From Pachysolen tannophilus NRRL Y-2460 (Eukaryota), in contig KV454012.1 of the NCBI GenBank assembly GCA_001661245.1, positions 62,001 through 126,000 on the forward strand: a DNA stretch of 64,000 nt. The letters run 5' to 3'. Below, piece by piece: positions 6,126 to 59,000 of the stretch (position 1 is the stretch's first letter; each line of letters opens with the position of its first letter). Made by a program: the position numbers and the translations under genes. Under the pieces are notes generated by a model. That model had not been told where the DNA came from and ran no database searches. It worked only from the letters and a program-made list of their open reading frames with translations.

Positions 6126-6272
6126 NAANNNNNNNNNNNNNNNNNNNNNNNNNNNNNNNNNNNNNNNNNNNNNNNNNNNNNNNNNNNNNNNNNNNNNNNN
6201 NNNNNNNNNNNNNNNNNNNNNNNNNNNNNNNNNNNNNNNNNNNNNNNNNNNNNNNNNNNNNNNNNNNNNNNN
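6126..6272. other. Assembly gap
   Basis: Run of N. Confidence 1.
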
Positions 6273-17074: not shown

Positions 17075-17536
17075 ATGAAATTTACTTTATTAACAGCTTT
17101 ACTTTCGCTCGCATCTATCGTTTCATACGGCGTTGAAGGTGCAACTTCAACTATTGAGTTGAAGGCAGTCTCTAATAATTCAGCAGTCAATGGTTTGGGT
17201 TTGTCTTCAGTTCATGAAGGTGCTGGTATTAATTACTTTTTCTTAGGTCAAGGTTCTGAAAAGTTAACTTATGATGGTGTTAGCACAATTTACGTTGAAG
17301 ATTCTTTACATCAAACTTTTCAAGTTGATAGTTCAATTCTTGAACTTTCTGTTACTACCACCTATAATCATTGGACTTTTGACAATAATAATTACTTAGC
17401 TCTCAACGGTTCAACAGATGGTTTTTACGCATGCAAAAACTTTAATGATCCTTACAGTTACTCTTCAAACGAGTATGGTGTTCTTACAGAAAAGGTCAAC
17501 TCTGATTGTTTACCAATTAAGATTTCCAAGGCCTAA
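17075..17536 (+). CDS. Small secreted/cell-wall protein (Candida Pga29/30/31-like domain, no GPI tail)
   Basis: Signal peptide; HEGAGINYFFLG and FYACKNFNDPYSYS motifs. Confidence 0.8.
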   Translation: MKFTLLTALLSLASIVSYGVEGATSTIELKAVSNNSAVNGLGLSSVHEGAGINYFFLGQGSEKLTYDGVSTIYVEDSLHQTFQVDSSILELSVTTTYNHWTFDNNNYLALNGSTDGFYACKNFNDPYSYSSNEYGVLTEKVNSDCLPIKISKA

Positions 17537-18989
17537 ATCGAGTTAAATAAAAAAAAAAAAATTCAAAAGCACCGTTTTTTTTTTTGCATTCTTGTTGAAG
17601 CAAGTTAGATCTTTTTTTTTTTCAAGGTGTGCTATTCAGTAATTAAATCTATAGCTTTATTTTCCCATTTTCTAAAACTTCTTCTTTTTTTTTCTTTTTC
17701 ATTTTTTTCATTTACTCTTCATTTTTAGTTAAAAATAAAAAAACTTTTCTATAACAAAATATCAATAACCAATTACGTTGAAAATAAAGTAAGAGTTCCT
17801 CCCCCCAAAAAAAAGAACTTTTCTTTTTTCTTTCAGGGACCGTTAGCCTAAATTATCGTTGACCTGAAATACGGTTTGAGAAAAAACACACAAGATATAT
17901 TAATTATTGAATTACTTACTAACTTTTGTCTAGTACCATTTATCCAATTTATCCAATTTATTCAATTTATTCAATTTATTCAATTCATCAACTAATCCAT
18001 TTTCAATTATGAATAAAAATAGGTATTTTTCTTTTCCTTTTGGAATAGATGCATATAGATGCATATAAAGAAATTTAAGCTGCTTTCTATTTAAAGATCA
18101 TTTTAGTGCTTATTATTGTTATTATAATTATTCAGGGTCCAGTTGAAACCTTTTTAGAAATCTTTAGTAACGTAATTTTTTAATCTTAAAAATGCACTTG
18201 AAAATTGATTTGATTAGTCAGTTTCTTGTGAGCTTGTAAAATACGTTACAAGAATCTTAGTTCGATATTAAACTGTAATATATTTTCCATTGGCTTATTC
18301 CCACAAACTTTGGAATTAGTTTTTACAATTCAACGAGTTTTCAACTAGCAATTTTTTTTTTAAAAAGTTGTTTCTCAATTAGAGGCATTAAGCACTTTGA
18401 AGTATTTCCACTATTCTTTTTTTTTGCCAAAAATGATTTACAAAATAAACATTTTTCAGGGAAATACCTTTTCTATAACATCTTTGACTCGACTAATTTA
18501 TTAAAAGGTGAGGCGTATTTTTGATTAACGCACCCTTGCATACACCATTTCTTCTTCTCAGTAAGGAATAGAAACAAATATGCATGACAAGTACAAATAT
18601 AAATAATACCATAGAAAAAAGAAAAAGCAAAAATAAAATACAGAAATGAAAGAACTTCAGCTAAACTAAGACAAAAATTAAGAAATATGCTTGTATTTCA
18701 AGAAAACTCACTCAAAACTTTTTCAAATGGTATCAGTTCCTGTTATATGATTTTATTGGTATTAAAGATTGGTTCCAGTTAATACTTATGTAAGCGGGAG
18801 ATTACGTAAGTCATCATATATTTAATACCGGGAAATCTATAATTCATTACTATAGACAGAGGGCAGTAAGGTTAAAAAGCTTTCAGCTCAATTAGTTTGA
18901 AGACGTGTCGGAACACGTATTTATTTTTTGTTTTTGAGCTTCGGTGATTGAGAATAATGATTATACTATGATACTATGACTTTGATACC

Positions 18990-19590
18990 ACCCAGATGGT
19001 GAGATAGCAGATATTTGGAATTTTAACAGTACCAAATCTATGGAAACTATGGAAAGAAAATACTATAGTTCGAGATAGCATATATTGTATGTCTTCAGTC
19101 TATTTGTGGTCTAAATATGATTTAAATTCTTTAAAAGATGTTCGTTTGGAAGATGAACAACTTACTCTTTGCGAAAGTTCAGGCTTATACTTTAATAGTT
19201 GCTTGAAACTATTGCAGAGTTTGTGCATGGAATTAACTAATAATTCACATCAAAATATGAATGATAATGATGTTGGATTTGTTGCAGTTGTAAACTACAT
19301 TTTTTTTGCTTTCTGAAGTATTCATCCACATTAGTGTAATTCCCTTGGTTAACATACCTAGATTTAATAGTAACAATATGGTTTACGAAGAAAATAACGT
19401 GGACTTGAATTAGTCAAGGAGTTTAGAAGCTTCACAGAGATTTGCTTCTCAATGATTGTATCTTCACAATTCAAATCATTATTTTTTTTTGATGAGGAAA
19501 TTTACAAACTTTTTCCCTTTATAACCGATTTGTCTAAAAAATTGGATATGATTAAAAGTTATGTTCCAAAAAAGAATTTCAAACTTTAAG
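18990..19590 (+). pseudogene. Degenerate paralogue of the Zn-cluster gene at 14772
   Basis: LWKENTIVRDSIYCMSSVYLWSKYDLNSL versus LWKENKNIRDGIYCISSIRLWSEYDLNSL; stops (FAF*SIHPH*), frameshifts, no Zn cluster. Confidence 0.85.
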
Positions 19591-19756
19591 TATTGCTATG
19601 GGATTTTTTATGATCAACAACTTTTTAATCTCGTTTTCCAAGGTCAATTCATATTAACTAATTGTCGTGAAATTAATACTTTATATCAAAAATTAAAAGA
19701 GTTAGGTATCTAGATTTTTTATCAAATGGAAGAAAAATGAACTAAATAACTTCTTT

Positions 19757-20119
19757 CTAATCTTTTTGGTTACAACCCATTTCTTCCAACACATCCACTA
19801 GTCTCAATTGACGTTGGTCTGCTATTATATTGACTAATCCCATACCAATATCTTTTAAATCATTGTATTCCCTTAATTTTCTTAGATGTTCCTTAACTAC
19901 CAACTCAGGGGTATCTTTTCCAAAACTTTTAAACAAATTAGTAAACTATAAAACTCAATTATTTTTATGATATATTTCCTAACTCATAAGAATAACATAC
20001 TCTATATCTTCAGCTAATTTTTCGTATTCTTGTTTGAGCAGTGCCAATTTACTCGATTTGGTACTCACTCTCCTCTCAATAATTTCTAAACTATTCGATG
20101 GTAACGAAAACTTGAACAT
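19757..20119 (-). CDS. SAE3: Swi5/Sae3 meiotic recombination mediator; exons 20119-20001 and 19925-19757, 95 aa
   Basis: Exon 2 encodes HLRKLREYNDLKDIGMGLVNIIADQR; 75-nt intron GTATGT...TACTAAT...AAG joins in frame; next to a LAM4/YSP2 gene as in S. cerevisiae. Confidence 0.92.
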
Positions 20120-20840
20120 TTGAAACAATTTCAGTGATAACCAAATTTTGGTCTTTTTCTTTTTTTTCTTTTTCTTTCTTTGTTTTCTAAATTGTAAAAT
20201 GGCGCTCTATTTATACCTATTTATTCTTTTTGGCCAAACCACAACATTCGAAATGTCGTACTTCCTTTTTGGGAAAATTGCTTACGGAAAGACACTTTAT
20301 ATATATTTATAATTATAGACATTCTTGTAAAACGATTAATATCAATATTGTTGATTAATAATTAAAGTGAAAGTAGCAGTCTCTTAAAGTCATTGGGAGG
20401 AAAAATTGACTGCAAAGAGAAAAAAAGAAAATTTATAATCAACAACTTATGTGATCGTATATAATGAGTACTGCATTTTTCCTACGAATTAGAATCTTGG
20501 AAATGCTCATACTCAATTCATTTTCTTTTAAGTTGACAATCCCTTCAGAGCTAGGAAGAAGCAAAAAAAAGTAGAACATGTAATCTTAATGCTTTAAAAT
20601 TAAAGCAATACTGCAATTTTGAAAGGTTTAATATTACTTCTTAAGCCCTACTCAGCTTTCTGTATTTTCATCTAGAGAAAAGCAAAAAAAAACAAAAAAA
20701 AAAAGAAAATAACTTTACAAAGTACAAGTTTCAATATTTAAACTTATTTATATTTCATTCTTGAATTAATAACATACATTAGCTATAATATTAATATTAA
20801 GAAAAAAGCTAAAAAAAAAAAAAAAAAAAAACAAAGTTCA

Positions 20841-23800
20841 CTAGTCCAACTGGTCACGTAATTCATCTAATCTCAGTTGCATTAGTCTCACCATTTCCTC
20901 TAAATTCTGCCTGGAATGGTGGTCTTTTATGTCAAATTCTTTGTCTTGAAGCTTTTTATTAGAAGTAGACTTTTTCATATGATTTCTGTCGTCAATCCAA
21001 TTCCAGATGTTGTACTCCATTTCGTTTGACAAGTAGTTTTCATCATTAAAACCTTGATCGCTAGGAATCATCAAATACTTCCTGCCGTTGATGATAACAT
21101 TTGAGGTTCCGCTTATCTCCATAGATGGCGAAACAGAAGGCAGAGACCTGAAAAGAGTCAAATATACAATTAATAAAAACATGAAAATACCCAATGGAAG
21201 TCTTAAAGAAGCAGGAATCATAGATATAATATCAGAGATCATCGATATATAATTGTTTTCAGTCTTCACTTCATGATCAGCTTCTTCTACTTTAATCTTA
21301 TCTTCTTCCTTCCTCCGAGATTTTGTGCTTGCCCTTTTGCGACGAGATATTGTATTAGTTCTTTTTCTTGTTGATAATGCTCCCAACAGAATAGTTGATT
21401 TCAATTCTGACAATATAATCTTTATGAATTCTTTCTGCCCGTCAATAGTACCTCTTTCAACTGCACCTTTAATCCAACTTTTACTAGTCCAATCAATTGA
21501 AGTCATCACCACAATTCTGGTGCGATTGTTTTCTGCCCATGAAAGCAAAAACATCGTCTTAACTGAAAATGAATTCCCACTTGGAACATCCGGAGTTTGG
21601 GTAGTTTGCAAGACATGAATTGTACTATTTAGATCAAACTTCTCAACTGTTTCTGTAATAATACATTTTGTTTGTTTTGGTCCAACAGGGGCATTAAGTG
21701 GTTTTTTATAGCTGTAACTTCTCAGCTTAATGTCATTTTCATTCCTTTCCATCTTTGGGATATCACTAATTTCATAGTTTTTGGCTTTTTCTAACGTACT
21801 CTTTATAAATAAAGAGTCATCGCCAAACAACAATAAATATATTACACCAAGAGGGCCATTAACTTTTTCATCACAAATTAATACATCGTTTGGTTTCTTA
21901 ACATACTCATTTTCCGTTGGATGGTGGGTTTTTGGACCAACCAATGGTAAACCATTAATGGATTCCTCATAATATGGTGCTCCACCTAAATGATCGGCAT
22001 AATCTTCCTGCTTTTGATTGAAATTTTGCTGTTCATCTTTATCAGACTCATTTGTCATATTTTCCATATCGGAAGTAACATCAGATACATTTACGTTGTG
22101 ACCATCGTAATCAACGTCATCACCGCTGGTATATGAATCCTCTGATCCATACGATTCAGTGTCATCTCCAGCAAGATCAACATCTTCGGCGCTTCCACCT
22201 TCAAGTTCAGAACCTAAAGCAGCACTATGTATGTTTTTATTCCAGACCACAGTCAAAAGATCAAAAGTACTATCACGAGATAGTAATGATGCAAATATAT
22301 GTTTTGAATGCAATGTTTGCACGAGTATAGCATTCGGAAAGACACCAGCTGTGGTTTTCTTTTCGATTTGAATTACCTCTTCCAACGGTATGACAAAGTT
22401 TTTAACCCAACCTAATATATTAGAATTAAAACAAATATGATTTTCACTGAGGTATATTCTCCCTTGAACTAATATTTCCCTTTGCAAAGCACAACTATAA
22501 TCTTCAATCAATCTTTCCTTTGGAGAAATCTGTTTAAAAATTTGATGAAATTCGGCCTGTGTCTTTTCATTAGCAAACGTTATATCTTTCGAATCAAACT
22601 TATTAAGGGTCATTGTACTGACCACTTTAGAAAGCAGAGGTGATAATGTACTGAGTCCATCATCATTTGTATCAGAATTATAATCAACTGCATCATCTGA
22701 AGCTGCAATCGATTTTTTGTAATTCTTTAAATGCAATTGTTTTTTTTTACGTATTATGTTTTCTGGTGCAAGAGAGATGGAATCACTGAACTTCAGAAAG
22801 CTTGGCGATAATGTTCTTCTTCTTGGAGAGATTGATTTTCTTTCAAGACCCGATTTAGCTGAAGGAGTTCGCACAATAGAATTATTATTACTAGTAGTAG
22901 CAACAGGAGCACTTAAAAATCCCTGATTGACATTATTTGTTTCCTGCTGTGGAAGTAATGGTCTCTTAGTTGTCTCCTCTGGTAATTCAATTGAAATTCT
23001 TGGAGGAACATTGTCATTTACAGCTGGTTGTAGCTCTTCACTCAGCTCCTCGTTTGAATTGCTGTTGCTGCTGCTATTTTTATCATTGAAATCTGATAAG
23101 TTCAAATCTCCTTTACCCAAAGTATTTAATTGTGACTTTCTTACTGCTTTAAATGTTATTCCCTTAGTAATGTCTTCAATTGGAGAGTCTGATAATGGTT
23201 TCATATTACTTGGTGTTTCGTTAACATTTTTGTTGGTTAAAATTGTGTCAATATGTTGCGATAAGGAATCATTGTATAAATTATTTAAATAGAATGATGT
23301 ATTATTAGAATTTGAACCAACAGCGTCTGAAGCTAAAAGTTTTATTGTAGAAAGAACATCACTGAATTTTGATTTAGGTTCAGCTTTCAGTTTAATATTA
23401 TTATTTATTCCAGTAGAATTTATCATGGAATCTTTATCATCATCGTCATCAGTTTGTCCATTCAATGATGCATGTGTTGCATTTTGATCAGGACCCATTG
23501 AAGTGATATGACTAGCAGCATTCTGAGCTGCTGAAATAAAAGATGAAAACAATCCACCTCCTTCATTAGAAACACTATTGTTTCTTTTACCACTACTGCT
23601 CAGACCGTTCAGATGACGCGAATCACCTTCCATCACTGATGAATCGTTATTCACTGTACTAGTGTTAATATCTGTTGAATTTGCAAAAGAAGATGGAGAA
23701 AGTGGTCTTCGAAAATTACTTGTATCAGAACTATTATCTTTAAATGACGTTACTGGAGAAGACAAATTGCTACGTGTCTTCCTCAGTTTCTTGGTAGAAG

Positions 23801-25212: not shown

Positions 25213-25815
25213 TTAACGATCTTCAGCCCATTCATTTTCACGTCTTATTGCAGCTTCTTCTTCTGGAGTAAAATCATTTACGATATTAAAAGTTTTCCTA
25301 ATTTCTTCTGGAGATTTGCCTCTTATCATTTCTGCAACCATTTTACAACCAGCATTTAATAATGGTTTAATATTCATATAATTTGCAGCCAATATAATTT
25401 CATATAACATTTCTTGATCTGTATTGAGGAAATTCTTATCCCATTCATCGATAGGAGCCGATTTCTTAGAATCATCATCTTCATCATCTTCAAAATCAAC
25501 ATCTTTATAATGTTCACACCATTCCAAAATAAATTTCATCACAGATGAAGACACATTAGGAAGCGGTATTTCAATTGGTTCGTCATCATCATCTTCGTCA
25601 ACATCATTTTTCTCACCATTACTGCCATTGCCCACACCTGAATCATTACCGTTATTTTCTAAATTTTTATCTTTATTTTCATCTTCATCCTCTTCTTCTT
25701 CACCAGCGAAAAGATCTTTAAGCATATTTTTCAACAAAATTGACTTCTCCATCACCTTCCTCTCTGTTGGAAACTTTTCATTATCAGAAGAAACCAAAAC
25801 ATAGCGCTTAACCAT
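25213..25815 (-). CDS. SKP1: SCF/CBF3 subunit Skp1
   Basis: [14 protein letters not shown]...[37 protein letters not shown]. Confidence 0.98.
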
Positions 25816-25866
25816 TTTCTAATATTATTATTATTATTATACTTTTTCTTTTTGTTCAATTTAAAT

Positions 25867-27769: not shown

Positions 27770-28043
27770 GTTCAATCACCAACCTAAAAAACAATCTCAA
27801 TCACTTCTTCTAATAGATTTTATACAAATATTAATCTTCAATTCTTTAATCAATTCGTTATCTTCTTCATTTATTCAATAAATAAATTTCTTTTAAAAGT
27901 ATTAAATACACATACATTATTTTCCACGACTTGTTTTATGGCCATTTTTTTTTTCTTTTGTAGAAAACTTTTCATTTTTAAAAATGACTTGATTTCATTG
28001 GGATATTATTTAGGAGTAAGAGGTTATTCTAGGGTTTAGGAAG

Positions 28044-30500
28044 ATGTTTATGAGAGTGGGTATCAGGAGGCTGCTGTTATCAAGGCTGGTACAGCTGGTA
28101 CGGTTGATGGAACTAGGTTTTTTAATTCCCAAGACAAAGGTGAATGATGGTTTGATTGCATATAACGGTATGAGGTTCAATTCCTCATCATCATCTTCAT
28201 CGTCATCGAGTTTATTGTCGAATTTCCCTAAAAATAAGAAAAGAAGTTCTTTGGCTAAATCTTCTAAATTTGGATCAAAGATAAGGAAGCAAGATGTTGA
28301 AGTTAAAGATGAGGGAAAGAAGAAAGAACAAGAGCTGCCTCACGAAATACAAGTAGAAAATTCGAATGACAAGTCAAAACTGAAAATGGATTTATCAAAC
28401 CATACTAATGTCAATTCAACTAAAGATTTTAAAAATAATAGAGACAGAAGAAATTTGAAGAAATCATCTGAAACTAAAAAGATAACAGAGGAATTTGCGA
28501 AAAAATTAGAACAAGAACAAAGATCAAAATCAAATAAAAATAAAAATAAAAAAAAATCAATGGAATTAACAGATTTAAAACAAAAACATTTAAATTCTTC
28601 ATCAATTACTAAAATACCTTTAGCAATACCAACTTTCTTGACTGTGGCAAATCTTGCAAATATCTTGAAAATTAGAATGGACAGTTTATTACAAAAACTT
28701 GAAGAATTGGGATTTAATAAAATAACTTATAATTATATCTTGGATAATGAAACTGCTTCTTTGATTGCCGATGAATACGGATTTGAAATAGTAGTAAATG
28801 ATGATTTAGGACTGGATTTGTTCCCCAGTGAACAAACTAAAGATGTTTCATTATTGAAACCTCGTGCTCCCATTGTCACCATCATGGGCCATGTTGATCA
28901 TGGTAAAACTACAATTTTGGATTTTTTACGTAAATCTTCTATAGTATCTAAAGAACATGGTGGAATAACACAACATATAGGTGCATTTTCTGTAATTGTA
29001 CCAAATTCAGGGAAAAAAATCACTTTTTTAGATACACCAGGTCATGCCGCTTTCTTGAAAATGAGGGAGAGAGGAGCAAATATTACTGATATTGTCGTTT
29101 TAGTAGTTGCTGCTGATGATTCCGTTATGCCACAAACTAAAGAAGCCATAAAACATGCAAAGAAAGCAGGAGTTCAAATAGTTGTTGCCATAAATAAATG
29201 TGATAAGCCAAATGCTAACCCACAGAAAGTCATTGCTGATCTTGCTGCTAATGGTATTGATGTAGAAGATTATGGTGGTGAAATTCAAACAGTAAAAGTT
29301 AGTGGAAAGACAGGTTTGGGTATGGAAGAGTTGGAAGAAGCCATTGTTACATTACTGGATATTCAAGAATTGAAAGCTCAAGTTTCTAAAGTTCCTGTAG
29401 AAGGATGGATTATTGAATCAGAAGTCAAGAAAGGTCTTGGAAATGTAGCTACTTTTTTAGTGACAAAAGGTACATTGAAGCCCGGATCGATATTAGTAGC
29501 AGGAAAAACTTGGTGTAAAGTAAAATCTATGAAAGATGAATTTGGTGTAACAGTTAAATCCGCAGCTCCATCAACACCAATAGAAGTTATTGGTTGGAAA
29601 GAGCTTCCAGAGGCAGGTGATCAAGCAATTGAAGCCAAAGATGAGTTATTTGCTAAAAAAGTAGTTAATAATAGAATTACTAGAGATGAAAAGATTAAAG
29701 AGGCCAAAGATATTGAAACTATTAATCAAAGAAGACTAGAAGAACAAGAACTGCAACTGCGTAAAGAAAAATTGCAAGAATTGAATAAATTGGGACTTTC
29801 TTTAGAAGATATAAAGGATAAAAATTTGTTGGATAATGAACAATTACAAGAATTTGAGTCATTAAAACCAAAGACTAAAATAGTTCCTTATATCGTTAAA
29901 TCGGATGTAAGTGGTTCCTCAGAAGCGATTGTGGAGAGTATTTCTAATTTGGGTAATGAAGAAGTTAAATCTTCCGTGTTATATAGCGAAGTTGGTTTTC
30001 CAACAGAGAGTGATATTGATAGAGCAGAAACTTCTGGTGCAACTATTATATGCTTCAATTTGAAAGTTCCAAAAGAAATTTCTAACAAGGCGTCAAGGAA
30101 AAATGTTATCATAAAGGAGCATACTGTAATTTACCACCTCATCGAAGATGTCGTTGAGCAATTGACTTCTTTCTTACCACCAAAAATTGAAATAAAAGTA
30201 TTAGCCACAACAGAGATCAGGCTGACTTTTAATATTACTGATAAAAACAAAAAAGTATTTAAAATTGCTGGATGTAGAGTTCAGGATGGAGTTTTGAAAA
30301 GAAATTCCAAAATTAGAGTTATGAGAAATAAGAGCCCTATATATGTTGGCCAATTGGATTCTTTAAAACATGAAAAAGATGAAGTTATTGAAGTTAAAAA
30401 GGGTACTGAGTGTGGGTTATCTTTTGGAAAATGGCAAGATTTCCAAGAAGGTGATATCATAGAGTCATATCAAGAAGTTGAAATTAAAAGATACTTGTAA
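28044..30500 (+). CDS. IFM1: Mitochondrial translation initiation factor IF2
   Basis: TIMGHVDHGKTT, GGITQHIGAF, DTPGHAAF, NKCD. Confidence 0.97.
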   Translation: MFMRVGIRRLLLSRLVQLVRLMELGFLIPKTKVNDGLIAYNGMRFNSSSSSSSSSSLLSNFPKNKKRSSLAKSSKFGSKIRKQDVEVKDEGKKKEQELPHEIQVENSNDKSKLKMDLSNHTNVNSTKDFKNNRDRRNLKKSSETKKITEEFAKKLEQEQRSKSNKNKNKKKSMELTDLKQKHLNSSSITKIPLAIPTFLTVANLANILKIRMDSLLQKLEELGFNKITYNYILDNETASLIADEYGFEIVVNDDLGLDLFPSEQTKDVSLLKPRAPIVTIMGHVDHGKTTILDFLRKSSIVSKEHGGITQHIGAFSVIVPNSGKKITFLDTPGHAAFLKMRERGANITDIVVLVVAADDSVMPQTKEAIKHAKKAGVQIVVAINKCDKPNANPQKVIADLAANGIDVEDYGGEIQTVKVSGKTGLGMEELEEAIVTLLDIQELKAQVSKVPVEGWIIESEVKKGLGNVATFLVTKGTLKPGSILVAGKTWCKVKSMKDEFGVTVKSAAPSTPIEVIGWKELPEAGDQAIEAKDELFAKKVVNNRITRDEKIKEAKDIETINQRRLEEQELQLRKEKLQELNKLGLSLEDIKDKNLLDNEQLQEFESLKPKTKIVPYIVKSDVSGSSEAIVESISNLGNEEVKSSVLYSEVGFPTESDIDRAETSGATIICFNLKVPKEISNKASRKNVIIKEHTVIYHLIEDVVEQLTSFLPPKIEIKVLATTEIRLTFNITDKNKKVFKIAGCRVQDGVLKRNSKIRVMRNKSPIYVGQLDSLKHEKDEVIEVKKGTECGLSFGKWQDFQEGDIIESYQEVEIKRYL

Positions 30501-30591
30501 AATTAGTTATATAGGAAACATAAAAATCTTCCAAAAACTTGTATATATAAATATATTATTATTAGTCAAAAAAATTAATATTTTTTTACAA

Positions 30592-31086
30592 TTATACAGA
30601 TTCTTCCCATTGAACACCACACCATTCCTCTATGTATCCAACATGATTTTCATCTAAGTGAGGCATATAATCCTCAACATCTGTACACACAATAATAGTC
30701 CCCCATTCCATTCCGTTAATTATATCAATGTTATCCTTTTCCAAATCTAAGATAGCTTGTGGCATTAATTGTAATTCAAATTGCCGTGTACTTGAAGGAT
30801 TATAACCAGGTATAGGAATCTTAAATTCGCCATCTTTATTATTGAAGATTTTATAAATGTCATCCTTACCTGAATAAAGTAAAGGTTTCCCACCTAAATC
30901 ATACCTTAAGACTTGTGATGGATTGTGAGAAATGAGCTGAGTCAAGTTTTGGAAAACAGGATCATCGAGCATAGAGACAATTCTTTGCGATTCTTGTCTA
31001 TCACCTAATTTAGAATCTCCAGTATTGTCAGAAGATGAACCAACTTCAAATTCTGTATCCAAGACAGAATTATCCAACTCATCAAG
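30592..31086 (-). CDS. TSR4: Tsr4 C-terminal part (PDCD2_C), separated by inversion
   Basis: HNPSQVLRYDLGGKPLLYS, FELQLMP, GMEWGTIIVCT, VQWEE; no ATG start of its own. Confidence 0.92.
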   Translation of the reverse strand, partial: LDELDNSVLDTEFEVGSSSDNTGDSKLGDRQESQRIVSMLDDPVFQNLTQLISHNPSQVLRYDLGGKPLLYSGKDDIYKIFNNKDGEFKIPIPGYNPSSTRQFELQLMPQAILDLEKDNIDIINGMEWGTIIVCTDVEDYMPHLDENHVGYIEEWCGVQWEESV

Positions 31087-31176
31087 AGTGGATTTGGAAG
31101 AGAATTGGGAGAAAGTGGACTAGATATGTACCTCCAAACAAAAGCAGTCCACTTTAACTTATCCAGAACGCTATGA
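31087..31176 (+). CDS. Last 29 codons of the aldehyde dehydrogenase, displaced by inversion
   Basis: Reads SGFGRELGESGLDMYLQTKAVHFNLSRTL*, the canonical ALDH tail that follows PFGGxKx. Confidence 0.93.
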   Translation, partial: SGFGRELGESGLDMYLQTKAVHFNLSRTL

Positions 31177-31489
31177 GAAACCTTTTTTTTTTTTCTTGCT
31201 TGCTTGCTTGCTTGCTTGCTTCATAGCCCAAATGGTAGATTAATCCCAAATGGTGGATTACATAGCCAAATGGCCAACCTGTTGTTGCTCCATCTTTTGG
31301 TATCTTATTGAATGGAAGCTTTCTGAAGGTAGTTCGGCTCAAATCAAACTTCTCAAAGTGTATAATGTATAGCATAAATAGAACATAAAACTTTTCACTT
31401 TTGTAATTATCTATTTTCAATTCCATAATATATCAAGTTTAAAGAAGCTACTTTTTTGTTGGTTTTTTATTGTGAAGAAGTAAGAGAAG

Positions 31490-32242
31490 ATGTCGAGTTA
31501 TAATGATCTTTCATCAGATGATGAAGATGAAAGTTTATCGAATTCAAAGCCTAGTGTTGTCTTAGGGTTTGTTGATGCTCCGATTACTGAAAATGATAAA
31601 CCAACATTTGAAGATACATTTCTTGGAAGTGTTCCAGTTTGGTTAGATGAGAATTCGCCTCCTTCTTTGGAATTATTATGTTGTAAATCGTGTGGTGGGT
31701 CAATGGCATTGCTACTACAGGCTTTTTCACCGATGGAAAATACTTTTTATGATAGGGTTATTTATATTTTTGCTTGTAAGAAGCCATCTTGTAAGCGGCG
31801 TAAAGGTTCAATAAGAGCAATAAGGTCAATACGAAAAGATCCTATAAAGATGAAAGAGTTGGAAGAACAAACATTGGAATCTGATTTGAAGAATAAATTA
31901 GAATTAGACAATCAGAAAAAATTGGAGGTGGATTTTACAAAAGATTTATTTAAACAGGGTAATAGTCAAAACCAAAACCCATTTGCATCATCAAACCCAT
32001 TTGAAAATAATCCATTTAGTTCAAAGACTGAAACTGAAAAACCAGAGAAATCTCAAAAGAAAGAAGTTTCAAAGCCAACATTTGCAGATATACTGTCTAC
32101 TAAAAATATAAAAGATGTTAAGAAAAAATCAAATAAAACTTCCAAATCAATAACTTTAGAAGAATATCCAGGTTCTTTCTTATACGTTCTGCCTGAAAAA
32201 TTCAAAAAGACAAATCAAGATCAAAATGAAATGAAACAGAAA
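31490..32242 (+). CDS. TSR4: Tsr4 N-terminal part (251 codons) inside the inverted segment
   Basis: VVLGFVD, DTFLGSVPVWL, CKSCG..MALLLQAFSP, YDRVIYIFAC; after 32242 the frame runs into the ALDH antisense strand. Confidence 0.92.
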
Positions 32243-33655
32243 CATTTTGACTCCACCAAATGGGACTCTAAAATCACTAGCATTGGTGCTATTAACCCAT
32301 ATCTGGCCACTTTGCACCTTTTTAGCAAAATTGTGAGCTCTTTTGTAACTTTCTGTGAAAATTGAGGCACCAAGTCCATATTTGGTATCATTTGCTAAAA
32401 AAATACCTTCTTCATCAGTTTTAAATTTAGAAACCGTTACAACAGGTCCAAAAATTTCCTCCTGAACAATTTCCATATCTTGTGTTACATTTGTGAATAT
32501 AGTTGGTTCTATGTAACAACTCTCTTCAGGAAATCCAGATGGAGCTTTCCCACCAAGAATGATTTTGGCACCCAGTTTCTTACCCGAGTCAATGAAGCTC
32601 AAAATACGCATCTGTTGAATTTTAGATACTTGTGGACCAATATTAGTTTCTTTTCCAAAAGGATCTCCCGGTTTGAAAACTTCTTCAACTCTTTTTTTCA
32701 ATTTTGGTAAAAATTTATCATATACATTTTCTTGGACATAAATTCTTGATGTACCAATACAAATCTGGCCCATATTATACATAATACCAAAAGCTGCCCA
32801 TTTCAGAGCTTCATCAAGATCGGCATCGTCACAAATTAATAATGGAGACTTCCCACCGCATTCCATTGTGACAGCTTTCAAGTTTGATGAAGCTAATTGC
32901 TGAACAATTTGACCAACTTTAGTAGAACCGGTAAAAGAAATCTTATCAACATCCATATGAGAAGCAAGTGCGGCTCCTGCTACTGGACCATGGCCAGAAA
33001 CAACATTAAATACACCAGGTGGGAACCCAGCTTCAACAAAAAGTTCGGCCATTTTCAAAATCGATAATGGTGTATTTTCTGCTGATTTCATGATTATCAC
33101 ATTCCCTGCGGCTAATGCAGGTGCAATCTTCCATCCAGCCATACATATGGGATAGTTCCATGGAACAATATGTCCAACAACACCATATGGAATTTTTTCA
33201 TAGTAAGCAAACTTTTCATTTCCAACTGGAATGGTCCTACCATGTGTCTTATCGCAATAACCAGCATAATATCTAAATACATTCACAGTATATTCAATAT
33301 CAAAAATCAGATTGGTGTATCTTGGCTTCCCAGAATCATAACTTTCAATATCAGAAAGTAAATCTTTATGTTCTTCCAACAACTCTGCAAATTTGTACAT
33401 CAATTTACCTCTATCAGTACCGGATATGTCATTCCAAACGTTTTCAAAACAGTCTCTAGCACACTTAACAGCCACATCGACGTCTTTCTCATTACCTTCA
33501 TAAACAGAACAAATAATTTTTCCTGTTGAAGGATCCACTGTGTCAAGCGTTTTCTTGTCAATAGATTCAACAAATTGATTATTGATGAATAAACCTCTCG
33601 GTTGTCTATACTTTTTACCAGTAGGAAGCTCAATATCGATTTGGAGTTGACTCAT
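32243..33655 (-). CDS. Cytosolic aldehyde dehydrogenase (Ald2/Ald3-like), codons 1-471; tail at 31087-31176
   Basis: IVPWNYP, KSAENTPLS, FTGSTKVG, MECGGKSP, GQICIG, EEIFGPV, PFGGVKM. Confidence 0.93.
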
Positions 33656-36244: not shown

Positions 36245-36924
36245 CGGTATCTCTAATATATATGCTCTTCTAATTCAGTATGCTAGGGCCAAAAAAATAA
36301 TCCATCTCTGGTATACAACAAGATAAAATAATAATTAGTACCTGAAAATTTAACCAGCTGAAAAAAAAAAAAAATTAAATTAAATTAAAACTCTTTCTAT
36401 AACTAACTAAGTTTATCCTTTCTTAGTCTTTGTAATTGCCCCGAGTTTTAAAAACTCATTGTATATATTCAATCAATATGATTCTCATAATATGAATTTA
36501 CAAATTAAACTAGAAATGTTTAAACCAAATTATTTATCAAACTTGAGAATAACCCATTGTTATATCGCTCCATAGTGATTAAACAGAATAAGCGGTACTA
36601 AACAAAATTGACCGGAAGGAGAATAACGAAAACTTCAAAGGGCTGCCCAAGAAGAAGCCGCCCTCCACGGGGCAGACCCCCGCCGCTCCACGCCAAAAGC
36701 CAATCAGAAGTCTTTCCGCCAGAAACATTACTATACAATTTTTCTCCTCTTCTAATATACAGGTTAGAGTAACCATATTCGGAGGCATAATGTTGAAAAT
36801 ATACTTACTATCTAACCAACTAACCGATCTAGGTCATAAATCGTCATCATCAATAGTAGTATTAATATCTTGTAACTGCATAAGCTGCCCTTTGAAGGAT
36901 CAATTAGTCGGTCAGATAAGTATT

Positions 36925-40653: not shown

Positions 40654-40712
<59 letters not shown>

Positions 40713-41100
40713 ANNNNNNNNNNNNNNNNNNNNNNNNNNNNNNNNNNNNNNNNNNNNNNNNNNNNNNNNNNNNNNNNNNNNNNNNNNNNNNNNNNNNNNN
40801 NNNNNNNNNNNNNNNNNNNNNNNNNNNNNNNNNNNNNNNNNNNNNNNNNNNNNNNNNNNNNNNNNNNNNNNNNNNNNNNNNNNNNNNNNNNNNNNNNNNN
40901 NNNNNNNNNNNNNNNNNNNNNNNNNNNNNNNNNNNNNNNNNNNNNNNNNNNNNNNNNNNNNNNNNNNNNNNNNNNNNNNNNNNNNNNNNNNNNNNNNNNN
41001 NNNNNNNNNNNNNNNNNNNNNNNNNNNNNNAAATAAATAAATAAATAAATAAATAAATAAAATAAAATTTTTTTTTTTTTTTTTTTTTTCTTTTTCTTTT
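40505..41100. repeat. (TG)n, (AAAAT)n, poly-T and (AAAT)n tracts around an assembly gap (N 40714-41030)
   Basis: Read directly from the sequence. Confidence 0.95.
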
Positions 41101-51881: not shown

Positions 51882-52005
51882 ACCAAACCAATTAATTTAT
51901 CATATAAATATAAATATATATAAATATATTGATATTGATAATTTACCAGTTTTCCGAGAATAACTAATTGATTGGGAGTAATTTGAAGGTGGGAAAGGAT
52001 ATAGA

Positions 52006-55000
52006 ATGGCGGTTTCTTCTACTCCTTCGAAGAGATATGTAAAAGAATCTCCTGCTTCGAGTAATTCAAAATTAAAGCAAAGTTCATTGCTATCGTTTTT
52101 CAAGAAAAAAAGTAGTCCAGCTGGAGTACCACAGTCGTCATCACCAATTAATTCGTCGCCAACAAGAGTTAATAATGATATTGGTGAGGTTTTGAAAAAA
52201 GATGCTGGGTACGACGAGAGTGGGTTTTCGGATGGTAAGGAGAATCAGGATCCGTTATCAGTTATAGCAAGTGATACCACAATGGTGGACGTGACTCCAG
52301 AAAAGAGTCAAGAGTCGAGAAAACAAAAATTACCAGAGAAAGAAGAAGCTGGTAAGTGGGAAGATAACCAGCAAGAAGATGACCAGGAGGATGAGGAAGA
52401 TGAAGATGAAATTGTCATTTCATCAAGTCGTCGTGGTAATGCTAGAAGGAAGATTAATTATTCCGAATTATCAGATGACGATGATGAAAATGTTCCTTCC
52501 AGTTCCAAAAAGAAAAGAAAAGCCATTGAATATGAAGATAGTGACGATGAATTCATAGTAGCAGATGACGAAGTAAGTGAAGACGATGTCGTTCCTGCAG
52601 ATGATGTAGCAAATGATCTAGCAGACGATGACGACGTTGTTGTTCCAGATGCTCATGATGATGACTTTAGCGATGAAGATGATTATGGAGAAATGGAGAA
52701 AATTAAAAAAATTAATGACGCGAAACCTAAAGCTAGAAATTCTAGTTTCAACTTATCTAGCAAATTCAATGCCGATTCAAATTATATATCATCTTCACCT
52801 TCTACTCTGAATAATAATAAACCAAAAACACTGCATCTGCCTAGTAAAACTCTAAGTGCAAGACAAAATTTTACAAAAGAAAATGAAGAAAGATATAAGT
52901 GGCTTATTCAAATTAAAGATGCAGAAGGAAGATTAGAATCAGATCCTGAATATGACCCAAGAACTTTATATATTCCGTCTTCAGCTTGGGCTAAATTTAC
53001 TCCTTTTGAAAAACAATATTGGGAGATAAAATCCAAAATGTGGGATTGTATTGTTTTTTTCAAGAAAGGTAAATTCTTTGAGCTTTATGAGAAAGATGCA
53101 GATTTGGCACATAATCTTTTTGAATTAAAAATTGCTGGAGGTGGTAGAGCCAATATGAAACTTGCCGGTATTCCAGAAATGTCTTTTGATTACTGGGCTT
53201 CTTGCTTCATCAATAAAGGTTATAAAGTGGCTAAAGTAGATCAGAAAGAAAGCATGTTGGCTAAAGAGATTAGAGAAACCAAAAATAATAAAAAGGAAGC
53301 ATCAGTTATAACTAGAGAATTATCATTTGTGTTAACGGGTGGTACCTTAACGGACGAGAACATGTTAACTGATGATATGGCTACCTATTGTCTTGCACTA
53401 AAAGAATGTGATAATAATGATGGATCAAAATCATTTGGTGTCTGTTTTGTAGACACAGCAACTGGTAGTATCAAATTGACCGAGTTTCAGGATGATCCAG
53501 AATGTAATCATCTAGAAACTTTATTAGCCCAAGTCAGACCAAAAGAAATTATAGTAGAGAAAGGTCACATTTCATCTTTAGCACTAAGGACGCTTAAATT
53601 TAACTCGACACCAGGTTGTATCTGGAATTTTTTGAAAAGCGGTGAAGAATTCTTAGATGCAGATTCTACCTTTGAAAATCTTACTAGAGGTAAATATTTT
53701 GAAGCAAAAGATTTGGATGACTTGTCAAATTATCCGAGTATCTTGGTTGATTACTCTGAAAATCATCATGTTGGATTTAGCGCATTTGGTTCATTGTTAT
53801 GGTATTTGAAATCATTGAAATTAGATCACGATATCATCTCCACAGGAAATATCACAAAGTATGATTCAATCATGAACTCAAACAGTTTGGTATTGGATGG
53901 TGTTACACTTCAAAACTTGGAAATTTTTTGTAACTCATTTGATGGTTCAGACAAGGGAACCCTTATCAAGATATTAAATAGATGTATTACTCCGTTTGGA
54001 AAAAGGATGTTCAAGACCTGGGTCATTCATCCCTTGTTCCAAAAACAAAAAATTGAGGAAAGATTGGACTCTGTTGAGTTGTTGTTGAATGATGGTGATT
54101 TGCGCCATCTATTTGAATCAAAGTTAAGTAAAATTCCTGACTTGGAACGTATGTTAGCACGTATACATTCCGGTGGCTTGAAAATTAAAGATTTTGTTAA
54201 AGTCATTGAAGGTTATGAAACAATCGACACTCTTATCAATTATTTGAGAACCCAGTATGGAGACAACTTTGAGAAAGTAGGAGGATCCATAGGTAAAATT
54301 TTGAAGAAATTTCCTAAGAATTTATCTGAATGCATCTCTAAATGGTCTGACGCCTTTGATAGGAATGAAGCCATTAATAATGGACTATTGATACCAGAGC
54401 CAGGTGTGGAACTAAGTTTCGATGAAAGTAATTCTCATATTGAAGAATTAGAAAAAAGTTTGAACAAATTGTTGTCGCAATATAGAAGAGAATACAAATG
54501 CCAAGAGATGTGTTTTAAAGATAGTGGAAAAGAAATATTTTTAATAGAAACTCCTTCCAAAATTGCAAACAAGATACCCTCGAGTTGGGATCAAATGGGA
54601 TCCACTTCTAAAGTTAAAAGATATTGGTCTCCAGAGGTCAAAAAATTAGCCAGAAAATTAATGGAACTGAGAGAATTGCATAAAATTTTAATGGATACTT
54701 TACAGCAGAAATTATATTCAAGATTTTACGAAGACTATAAAACTTGGGCTGCCGCATTCGAACACATTGCTAATATAGACTGTGTCATTTCTCTTGCAAG
54801 GGCATCGGAATCGATTGGATCTCCCGCTTGTAGACCACAGTTTGTTGAAAACGATGGAAAGGGAATGATTAACTTCGAGGAATTAAGACATCCTTGTTTT
54901 ATTGAGGGAGGAGCCTCTGGTACAACAGATTTTATCCCAAATGATGTTAAGCTAGGAGGAGATTTTGATTCAGCTAATTTGGCTTTACTCACGGGTGCTA

Positions 55001-55254
55001 ATGCAGCTGGAAAATCGACTTTATTAAGAATGACTTGTGTAGCAGTGTTAATGGCCCAAATTGGATGTTATGTTCCTTGCAGATCTGCACAGTTGACTCC
55101 TATCGATAAGATCATGACCAGGTTAGGTGCGAATGATAATATTATGCAAGGAAAGTCTACCTTTTATGTTGAATTATCGGAGACAAAGAAAATATTATCT
55201 CAATCTACCCCTAAATCTTTAATCGTCTTAGATGAATTGGGACGTGGAGGTTCT
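52006..55254 (+). CDS. MSH6: MutS-alpha subunit Msh6, codons 1-1083 (broken after DELGRGGS)
   Basis: PIP box QSSLLSFF, FFKKGKFFELYE, LTGANAAGKSTLLR, STFYVEL, DELGRGGS. Confidence 0.97.
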
Positions 55255-55377
55255 TTAGTTTTTAAGATTTTACAGATTTACGAATATATGATGGTATTTT
55301 TTATGGTGCAACAAACTCTATTTTATTCTAGATTCATTGGACATCTATGAATCAAAAAAAAAAAATATTCAAATACA

Positions 55378-55862
55378 TTAATTTAAACCTTCAATCATCT
55401 TAAAAATACTTTTTAAAGCATAACCCTTATCGTAACAGGCAATGTCTTCGCCAATCTTATGTTTCTCACTCAACAACCATGCAAAGTCACTTTGCAATCC
55501 TAATGGAATTAATTCAGATTTCCCTTCTCCTATAATCAATTTCCTGTTCTTTAATTTTGAAGTGTGTTCGAATTCTTTTGCAGCAGTTTCTGCATTATCA
55601 ACAATGATATCTTCAATACCACACATCGACGCTACATGCATACCAAATGACCCCGAAGATGCTCCGTCTTCTAATTTGTATAGAAATGTAATATTTCTCG
55701 ATTTTGGTTCAACTAAGATTGCCATTCTCAACGGCTTGACTTGTGGATGGGTCTTGAAAGAGTTACCCAACGTTCCATAATGCGTAGCAAAAAACCAATA
55801 GACTGAATATGTGTTGCAACATGATGTAAAACCGCTTCTGCTATAGCAAACCCATCTGATGA
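55378..55862 (-). CDS. MSH6: Msh6 C-terminal ~161 codons, inverted, with a 1-nt frameshift in a T run
   Basis: SSDGFAIAEAVLHHVATHIQSIGF / FATHYGTL...ITFLYKL..G..SGSFGMHVASMCGI. Confidence 0.95.
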
Positions 55863-56069
55863 AGTACAATTCGACATAAAAATAGGAAAATGGAAAAAAT
55901 AAAAGAAAAAAAAGACAAGTTAAAAATCTAAATATCTCCCAATCCTTTTCATTCATTTTTATTTTTATTTTCTTTCTCTTTTTTTTTTTCTTCTGAAAAC
56001 TATCTTATTTTAATAATATCCCAAATCAGTAACAATTCGTTATATAAAACGTGAAAAATGTGATATCAA

Positions 56070-59000
56070 TCACTTGTGATTTTGCTGCTGTAATTGCTGT
56101 AACTGGTAATTATAATTAATGAACTCCTTTTTAGAGTTCAGGGATCCGTAAGGTTGAGGGAATGTTCTGGTATTTTGTATTGTTTCTTTATAAAACAGCG
56201 GAAAGTGATTACCATACTGTGCTGGTAAATTGTGATTATCCGTATTACTATTTATATTGTAATTTTGATTGACTATGAAGTTTTGGTCATTGGTATCTGT
56301 TTTCTTGACATTCTTCCTCTTTGGCTTTTGTTGAGTACCGCTTTCGAAAGTATAGTTATCACCAAATACGGCCATTCTCTTTTTTATACGCTTTTGCTCT
56401 CTTCTTTTCTCAACTTCTTTTTTCAATAAAAAGTTCTGATACATGGGATCATTAGGCTCAGTGGCATTGATATTATTTGCAAACCTTGCAACTTGATCAC
56501 TAGAAGCATCATACATATAAAACCAAAATTTAGACCTTTCGTCACCTGGAGCAAGTTCTATTTTATCTGAATAGTCAAAATTTGGTTTCACCACTTCTAT
56601 AAAATTCACTGGTTTTTCATTCAGATAAATTTTATCATAAGTCAATGTTTGCTTCTGGTAATCCGTAGAGTTCTCTTTATTTTTAAATATTTTCTCCAAT
56701 TCAAATTCGTTTATTTTTTTCGATACTATAGAAAAAATTGAAGAATCTGAAGGTGTTTTCCATTGCCATTCCTCTTCCTTTTTTTTCATTTTCTCTGATT
56801 TTAATCTTTTTCTTTCCTCTCTTTTTTGCTCTTGTTTTAATAATCTTTTCATTTCTAGTTCCGCATACGCTATAGAGGAATCTTTGCATGAGATTTTATC
56901 ATAATTCTCTGCGGGTATTAAAATATTCTCATACGACACTTCAAGAACTTCATCATTATTTTTAGAATTCGGATAAATCTGCAAATTCACTGAAGACTCA
57001 GAGCAGTTATTAGAAATGGTCACCGCACAATAGTAGTCATTATCAATTTTAAATTGAATGAAATCACCTTTTGCCAAATCTTTTAGATAATTGAAACTAT
57101 AATCTTGGTCAAAAGAAGTATTTTTGGGTCTATGATATCGACACAAAGAGCCAAAATCCTTTGTTAATAATACTCCTCCGAGTAGTGAGCAAGTACCATG
57201 AAACGCTCTTGTACACTTCTTATAAGAACATTGAAAACAAATACCTTTAAATTTTAAAGCTGCCTGTTCTTGGACTTGCAGTAAGGAAGTTAAAACAGAA
57301 GTACATATTGAACATTTCAAATTCTTCCTTGCCGTTGGTATTAAATCATACCCTATTACTACTTCATTATTATTGACTTCGTTATCATCTTCAACCAATT
57401 TATTGCTTCCATTTTCACCCTGCTCTGTGTTATTTAAGTCATTTGAAATTTCAACTTGTTTTTGTTCATTGAAAGTATCAGATTTCTCTTTATCATTTTT
57501 TAAACGTATCCAATCTTTTTCCTTAATTATTTGTAATTCAGCAATAAACTCAGAACAAATTCGATGGCACTTCCAGTATTTCCCATATTTCTCACCTTTA
57601 TTATAATGATTACAATCGACAACATCCAATAATTCAAATTTCTTTAGCTTTAGGTAAGCTTGAGAAAGCTTATTAGGACAAAATATACACTGTTGTACTT
57701 CTTCTTTTGGTATAGTTTTTCTAGAAGCCTTATGACCAGATTTTGAAAGCTTCTTAGTATCTGATGTTGCTGGTGATTGTGATTTACTTCCTGTTCCTGT
57801 TTCATTTGCAGTTTCAGGTTCTGAACCGGGTTCAATTTCTGAATCACTTTCTGTTAAATCTCCATTTAATCTTTTAACAAATTTTCGAATATCAATAGAA
57901 ACACTATCATCAACACATTCACATTTTTTAGATACCGCACCAATATCCAACCACTCTTCTAAGGCAAAATTTACCGATTCTGCCAAGTTATAGCCATAAT
58001 TAAATCCCGAATGATAACCATATGGATAAGTTATAATGAATTCTCTTTCTCTGTGTATTATTTTATTTACTTGAATTCCATGTTTAGTTAAAAATTGAGG
58101 TGATGCAGTAAAAGTTTTGTGACGTAAAAATTCTGAACAATTATTATAGTCATCGGGGAAAATTTCAGTCATTAATTTATAAAATTTCAAATGTTGATCT
58201 TGAGGAATAGAGTACCATTGTTTTGGAGCTCCAAAATGCAAATAATTGATTGAATACAAATCTTGATCTTCTAAATGCCAACTAAAAGTTGCCTTCCAAA
58301 GCCCAGCGTATAGGTAAGCATCATTGACTCCAGGTAATTTTGATGGTAACCAATCCAATAAATTAGGTAAATGTGCAACATTCCAAACTCTATGATCATC
58401 TTTGAACAATGACCCCAAAGAATCTGCTCCATACAATGGTGATGAAAATGAAATTGTTTTCCAATATTGTTTTTCCAAGAAATCACATTTTTCATCGGTA
58501 TATATTGAAGTATCTATATTATAATTAAAACCTTTTACCGCGTCTTCTGGTAAATGATTTGAATTTCCCTTTATTAAATTAAATTTTTTTTGATCAGCTT
58601 TTGATATCTTATTATATTGAGGATTTTTTTCACCTCTAGGTACAGGTAATAGATAATTTGGTTGATAACTTAATTTTTTCCATTGTAATAAATTGAAAGA
58701 TTTTTTCTTTTCAATATTGTTAATTGAAAAACATCCAGCTTTATCATTTTGACTTGTAAACTCTTGCGTTATGGGAGATTTAAATGTGATCTTGGCAATA
58801 TCATCCTCTGAATAATGACTTGGACCTCCTCCATGTGTAAACCATTCATTAGGTGGTATAATTTTAACTATACCAGATGACATTCCATACCGATTTATAG
58901 ATTTTTGGAAAATATAAAAATCTTTAAATTCATCCCATGAAGGCTTAAAAACTGGTACCCCATTCTCAACATGATCAGGCTTAATATCAAATAATTCATA

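Follow-up and report, generated by a model that had tools for sequence, protein, structure and literature searches.

The window analysed here, by which the whole stretch of 64,000 nucleotides is meant, contains a place where two neighbouring genes change strand in the middle of their reading frames. One is a Tsr4/PDCD2-type gene and the other is an aldehyde dehydrogenase (ALDH) gene, and both are interrupted by the same short segment, 31087-32242. The question raised by this locus is whether the segment is turned around in the DNA of Pachysolen tannophilus NRRL Y-2460, where it would break both genes at once, or in the deposited sequence.

Structure of the flipped segment and of the two genes it splits

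The features of the locus, with the evidence on which each was assigned, are as follows.

31087..32242, no strand: flipped segment of 1,156 bp, reverse-complemented relative to its flanks (un-flipping opens both genes; contigs of sequencing run X1)
32243..33655, minus strand: ALDH, first 471 codons, ending ...RVPFGGVKM (Pfam Aldedh; residues 4-464 of 496 of PDB chain 7kqv_A)
31087..31176, plus strand (the wrong strand): ALDH, last 29 codons, SGFGRELGE...HFNLSRTL, and stop (PDB matches; relative P0138)
31490..32242, plus strand (the wrong strand): Tsr4/PDCD2-type gene, first 251 codons (16 relatives with PF04194; alignment to relative P0005)
30592..31086, minus strand: Tsr4/PDCD2-type gene, last 164 codons and stop (PDCD2_C domain; alignment to P0005)
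31177..31489, no strand: spacer from the ALDH stop to the Tsr4 start, inside the flip, with T12 (31183-31194) followed by (TTGC)n
28020..30500, plus strand: IFM1-type mitochondrial IF2 gene, the left neighbour (GTP_EFTU, IF-2 and IF2_N domains)

The original prediction described an exact inversion of 1,156 bp that breaks TSR4 and ALDH together, and every coordinate and residue that it gave was found to be correct to the base. When 31087-32242 was reverse-complemented by script, a 500-aa ALDH and a 415-aa Tsr4 were obtained, the lengths that had been predicted, both open from their first Met. Both genes are then full-length and colinear, with no base gained and none lost. The breakpoints can equally be written as 31086/32243, owing to an ambiguity of 1 bp, and the 1-bp microhomology that had been proposed was recovered in the comparison of the junctions as well as in the X1 contigs. 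The locus was also said to be free of an inverted repeat, and among the 25 longest of the 91 inverted pairs between 30500 and 32900 none links the two junctions. Within these 25, a single pair, I2, spans a junction at all. It is 26 nt long and 73% complementary and pairs 31080-31105 with a site 484 nt past the right junction, which is regarded as chance-level pairing since the DNA has 30% G+C. In the restored orientation the local order is IFM1 (+), Tsr4 (-) and ALDH (-), three intact genes, and the IFM1-type gene and Tsr4 of this window are convergent.

On the minus strand the ALDH reading frame opens with a Met codon at 33655; past 32243 it gives meaningless residues. As predicted, the gene is split at PFGGVKM, the Met codon of which is 32245-32243, and its tail lies on the plus strand from 31087, where 31087-31176 encode the missing end SGFGRELGESGLDMYLQTKAVHFNLSRTL and a stop. 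The N-terminal part matches Pfam Aldedh (PF00171) with an E value of 1.9e-161 over profile positions 2-439 of 461, cut at the C-terminal end, and the 29-aa tail by itself matched no Pfam family. A full PF00171 match, including the C-terminal ...GG.K.SG.GRE.G segment, is obtained only after restoration, when the tail supplies the rest. The two parts abut exactly on PDB chain 7kqv_A: the penultimate residue of the N-terminal part aligns to residue 464, so that this part ends at 464/465, and the tail starts at 466 and extends to 491 (E 0.026; best chain E 0.004). At E<=1 the tail matched 49 PDB sequences, each bearing the name of a dehydrogenase that acts on aldehyde-type substrates and each matched near its C-terminal end. 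The tail also aligns at 76% identity with the final stretch, residues 479-507, of the relative P0138 (507 aa). This protein, from another yeast and 70% identical, reads uninterrupted as ...PFGGVKMSGFGRELGESGL... across the break.

The Tsr4 gene starts at 31490 on the plus strand and reaches ...NEMKQK at 32242; the minus strand takes it up again at 31086 and carries it to 30595, and the stop codon follows at 30592-30594. This bears out the proposed plus-strand reading to ...MKQK (32242) with resumption at LDELDNSVLD... on the minus strand from 31086. The C-terminal part is a complete PDCD2_C domain (Pfam, profile 1-111 of 111, E 5.1e-31), and the 251-aa N-terminal half alone matched no Pfam family, two of the four pieces of both genes having had a match. 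Residues 19-240 of the N-terminal piece align to residues 3-229 of the 411-aa relative P0005 at 49% identity, and residues 32-164 of the C-terminal piece align to residues 270-411 of the same protein, so that it is a variable linker that the break interrupts. PF04194 is carried by every one of the 16 relatives found with the N-terminal piece (best identity 49%), and this indicates that both Tsr4 halves belong to one polypeptide in other yeasts. The restored 415-aa protein is colinear with relatives of 361-440 aa, and only in the restored form does it have the features of a Tsr4/PDCD2 protein of about 400 aa.

Tsr4/PDCD2 has been described as a dedicated chaperone of the ribosomal protein Rps2 (uS5) in the available portions of three reports (PMC6648895; PMC7736825; bioRxiv 10.1101/559146). 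The original prediction called TSR4 an essential gene of S. cerevisiae, in keeping with the sections available of one of them (PMC6648895), in which removal of the last 8 residues of S. cerevisiae Tsr4 is reported to abolish Rps2 binding. Because so small a removal abolishes binding there, the Tsr4 of the window, which lacks 164 residues, should be non-functional. A Tsr4 model of P. tannophilus was not found among the proteins of 138-440 aa in the protein collection, where the 16 relatives all come from other species, and this absence would fit a missing or odd gene model.

Orientation in read-derived contigs

Eight public sequencing runs were listed, none of them of RNA, with X1-X4 belonging to study P1 and X5 to study P2. 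The contigs of X1, X2, X5 and X6 (Logan) were compared with the window, and those of X1 were informative. Record 1 of X1 (5,644 nt, depth 17.2) passes from 31229-32242 (+) directly into 31086-30400 (-), and record 2 (4,163 nt, depth 18.8) passes from 31178-31086 (-) directly into 32244-33000 (+). Neither record has a differing letter or a gap, and on their shorter sides they extend for 255 and 93 nt. The two joins coincide exactly with the restored junctions, the one with Tsr4 intact and the other with ALDH intact. The window-type junction was found in none of the 8 aligned contig records, among which the informative contigs come from X1. The T12/(TTGC)n tract (31179-31228) marks the end of both X1 contigs, and X1 is identical to the window over 2,551 of 2,551 aligned bases. 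From X2, only scraps of 18-21 nt from an unrelated high-depth contig were aligned; X6 gave five pieces of 100-209 nt, all away from the junctions. No contig of X5 was aligned, possibly falsely, as the contig filter loses contigs by chance.

Since de Bruijn contigs break at branches, the lack of a branch at either restored junction in X1 argues, by inference, against a mixture of about 50:50. Compared with raw reads, contigs show that the restored form is present, but a minor flipped variant could have been dropped from them; X1 is also not necessarily the assembly's own sample. Whether reads show only the restored orientation, the check proposed with the original prediction, can thus be answered with yes for the X1 contigs, of which two bridge the restored junctions and none a window-type junction. 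At the level of words, all five of the runs X1-X5 contain 0.95 of the sampled 31-mers of 30400-33000. The predicted share is 0.946 if 60 junction-spanning words and about 80 words of the uncovered repeat are missing out of 2,571, and 0.97 if the junction words are kept. The observed share is a weak indication that the junction words of the window are lost in these runs, since it gives a proportion in which the missing words themselves are not visible.

A second flip and the public gene models

A further segment of the same kind, recognised by protein colinearity, lies in a homologue of MSH6, 24 kb from 31087-32242 and within the same 64-kb window.

55255..55862, no strand: second flipped segment of about 608 bp, which splits the MSH6 homologue (MutS_V split; colinearity with relative P0018)
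52006..55254, plus strand: MSH6 homologue, N-terminal 1,083 codons, ending ...DELGRGGS (reading of the DNA, protein matches, public model P0017)
55381..55862, minus strand (the wrong strand): MSH6 homologue, C-terminal part (reading of the DNA; P0018 and 2o8b_B)

The MutS_V domain is divided between the ORF 51982-55347 (+), which matches profile positions 2-92 of 188, and the ORF 55381-56004 (-), which matches positions 108-188. The minus strand reads SSDGFAIAEAVLHHVATHIQSIG from 55862 to 55794 and then, after a frameshift, FFATHYGTL...KMIEGLN to 55381. This 1-nt frameshift in the flipped tail lies at about 55789-55794, where the minus strand has T6 and the SIGFFATHY of the relatives needs T7; it is a homopolymer-length error of a kind typical of draft consensus. 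The three MSH6 pieces occupy residues 770-1058, 1059-1081 and 1082-1219 (the end) of the 1,219-aa relative P0018, with zero gap and zero overlap, and they are colinear with human MSH6 (2o8b_B) up to residue 880 and from residue 907 onward. PDB searches with the 44-aa and 23-aa MSH6 pieces returned no match even at E<=10; the 23-aa piece matches P0018 at 91% identity. Read from the DNA and these alignments, 55255-55862 is a second base-perfect flip, with breakpoints ambiguous over 3 bp (55253-55256 / 55861-55864). A single gene is broken by this flip, the opposite end of which falls in the spacer before a JmjC gene.

Searches with the pieces led to two gene models that stand in the public record under the name Pachysolen tannophilus NRRL Y-2460, both on a contig of 2,193,613 nt. 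The ALDH model P0137 (515 aa) is 99% identical to the ALDH of the window, and the MSH6-like model P0017 (1,092 aa) is 100% identical. Both were rebuilt letter for letter from the window by a script using NCBI table 26, in which CUG is Ala, and they match the window only when CTG is read as alanine. The 1% mismatch of P0137 is explained by three CTG codons read as alanine in the model, as compared with standard-code translation. P. tannophilus has been shown by proteomics to read CUG as alanine, according to the part available of PMC4937558.

The structure of both models follows the breakpoints. P0137 joins 33655-32244 (-) to 32188-32056 (-) across a 55-nt GT..AG 'intron' that begins exactly at the breakpoint, 32243. 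Its end runs from ...RVPFGGVK into ITYKKEPGYSS...GFETSFF, a tail of 45 residues, of which 44 are the antisense of the flipped Tsr4 N-terminal half (minus-strand ORF 32053-32214) and the remaining one is the junction residue I. P0017 joins 52006-55257 (+) to 58901-58924 (+) across a GT..AG 'intron' of about 3.6 kb from 55258, 3 nt past the second breakpoint. Its second exon, 58901-58924, is a fake exon of 8 codons, and the model stops about 160 residues short of the C-terminus, so that the last part of the ATPase domain is missing as well. The letter-exact rebuild is possible only through these spurious introns at the breakpoints, and hence the annotation was made on sequence that was already flipped.

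The remainder of the window was surveyed through its ORFs. Of 51 ORFs of at least 110 aa, 30 were scanned against Pfam and 22 of these had a family at E<=1e-5. The 21 ORFs outside the scan comprise 3 pieces of the finding (their coding parts were scanned apart), 17 that are enclosed by a longer ORF in a different frame or on the opposite strand, and 36592-36924 (+). Among 101 short ORFs outside the long ones, one had a Pfam match, a 62-aa ORF at 19760-19945 (-) that covers positions 29-79 of 80 of the Swi5 profile. This fragment sits in a 3.3-kb stretch (17533-20844) without an ORF of at least 110 aa and may be one exon of a spliced gene or another broken gene. A possible intron is indicated in a Skp1 homologue at 25216-25818 (-), where the match to the POZ domain comes in two parts. 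A tRNA scan of the window found no genes, and its G+C content is 30.4%.

Assembly fault, rival explanations and known systems

We put the probability at roughly 0.9 that the deposited draft assembly has the 1,156-bp segment in the wrong orientation and that the organism's DNA carries IFM1 (+), Tsr4 (-) and ALDH (-) intact. A mis-oriented assembly fragment was also the reading preferred in the original prediction, and it gains support from the X1 contigs at both junctions, the apparent second flip and the N-gapped state of the draft. The window contains N at 6126, 6129-6272 and 40714-41030, as in a scaffolded draft. The available part of PMC13232491 gives the strain's assembly, of about 12.6 Mb, as scaffold-level, its contig and scaffold N50 values falling in the 10^4 and 10^6 bins, respectively. 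A second flip in MSH6 together with an N-gapped, scaffolded draft fits a recurrent assembly fault. What speaks against an artefact is the nature of the breakpoints, which are base-perfect, lie in unique sequence and show no N and no lost bases, which is atypical of scaffolding errors. The case for the artefact draws on the contigs of one run (X1) and, for the second flip, on protein colinearity.

Several other explanations place the flip elsewhere. It is improbable that a blunt inversion became fixed in the assembled isolate or laboratory lineage, X1 then coming from a lineage without it. The flip is present in the deposited assembly, beyond the window alone, its clean breakpoints with 1 bp of microhomology are such as precise two-break end joining could give, and X1 need not share its source with the assembly. 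However, X1 is identical at all 2,551 aligned bases, which points to the same or a nearly identical strain, and the word share of 0.95 is the same in all five runs X1-X5. Such an inversion would also destroy Tsr4, essential in S. cerevisiae according to the sections available of PMC6648895, and with the MSH6-destroying flip 24 kb away a very high rate of gene-killing inversions would be implied. That the flips are real in the sequenced culture, as base-perfect, repeat-independent micro-inversions of 0.6-1.2 kb arising at high frequency, has a slimmer chance again; if it were true, one would knock out Tsr4 and ALDH and the other MSH6, and X1 would stem from cells or a lineage without the flips. 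It is, in our estimate, very unlikely that the base-perfect breakpoints, which resemble an in-silico operation, came from handling of the window only, after deposition. Indeed we give that origin practically no weight, and it was rejected: P0137 and P0017, with introns starting at 32243 and 55258, are rebuilt letter for letter from the flipped sequence, and the flips thus predate the annotation of the public record.

The original prediction had kept in reserve, as a fallback, a real blunt inversion or a switch that toggles two genes together, and no support was found for either, the informative contigs being those of one run (X1). A reversible or heterogeneous inversion in part of the population, toggling ALDH and Tsr4 and caught by the assembly in a minority state, would be a highly improbable account. 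Rare variants are lost from contigs, so a minor flipped population in X1 is conceivable, and flip/flop inversion at MAT loci is known in this yeast group, including P. tannophilus (PMC5720833, available part). Yet the segment here is without flanking inverted repeats, as against the 2-kb inverted repeats described for Ogataea in the same source, and the flipped state breaks both genes with no re-wiring, the ALDH profile ending at 439 of 461 and Tsr4 losing PDCD2_C. No recombinase or integrase domain was found in 135 ORF translations of the window (4 + 30 + 101), 11 ORFs of at least 110 aa being without a Pfam match or unscanned. Three of the four defining features of an invertible switch are therefore lacking, namely inverted repeats, a functional flipped state and a recombinase. 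As to the fourth, orientation, the X1 contigs show the restored form alone, with the proviso that contigs drop minor variants; their unbranched course through the restored junctions speaks against a mixture near 50:50. The nearby second flip shares no sequence feature with the first.

For the mis-oriented fragment, the fault would have arisen during assembly or gap closure. It can be imagined that gaps at homopolymers were patched and that patches were stitched in backwards. The short-read contigs of X1 also break at the T12 tract, which would fit such a patch. Each flip holds a 12-nt homopolymer about 96-100 nt inside its left end (T12 at 31183-31194 and A12 at 55354-55365), and past the right end of the second flip, at a distance of 116 nt, there is a T11 run (55979-55989). 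For three of the four breakpoints an A/T run of 11-12 nt is thus found at 96-117 nt, and for the fourth none occurs within 1 kb. A13, T50 and T22 adjoin the N gaps of the window, and the 64 kb hold 47 A/T runs of at least 10 nt. The link to homopolymers was left out as evidence, since it came to notice in hindsight and does not extend to the fourth breakpoint. The T50 is found at 40656-40705, 8 nt before the 317-N gap, and the T22 about 40 nt after it; run lengths such as T50 are unreliable in draft sequence.

Most likely, then, the genes are intact in the organism, and the locus is no biological feature. In practical terms, the public protein set annotates Tsr4, the present ALDH and MSH6 of this yeast wrongly. 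In comparative studies that score gene presence, an essential chaperone of ribosome biogenesis (Tsr4) could falsely appear to be lost and a mismatch-repair gene (MSH6) to be truncated. Since 64 kb contain two flips, the assembly of about 12.6 Mb may hold many further base-perfect micro-inversions.

Four known systems offer a comparison. The Tsr4/PDCD2 family is matched by the restored protein, which has a complete PDCD2_C and the conserved N-terminal half, whereas the gene of the window is cut after codon 251 and loses the whole of PDCD2_C. The Ogataea-type MAT flip/flop system resembles the locus in that a chromosomal segment inverts in this yeast group, changing gene expression. In that system, as far as the available part of PMC5720833 describes it, the inverting 19 kb are flanked by a pair of identical 2-kb inverted repeats, and either state is functional. 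The segment here is 1.2 kb long, has no inverted repeats, destroys both genes when flipped and is seen in the contigs in the restored state alone.

Micro-inversions by template switching are usually tens of bases long, carry characteristic local signatures and are real, so that they are present in reads. Replication template-switch events share with this locus a small size, the lack of long flanking repeats and the ability to split a gene, but the segment here is 1,156 bp long and its flipped form is absent from the X1 contigs. Assembly evaluators count 'inversion' as a class of misassembly. With inversion-type misassembly in draft scaffolds the locus shares a short reverse-complemented segment that is contradicted by independent read-derived sequence, an apparent recurrence in the same assembly, and a scaffold-level draft with N gaps and a homopolymer indel. 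It differs in its breakpoints, which are base-perfect, without N, overlap or loss, and so cleaner than in the usual scaffolding error.
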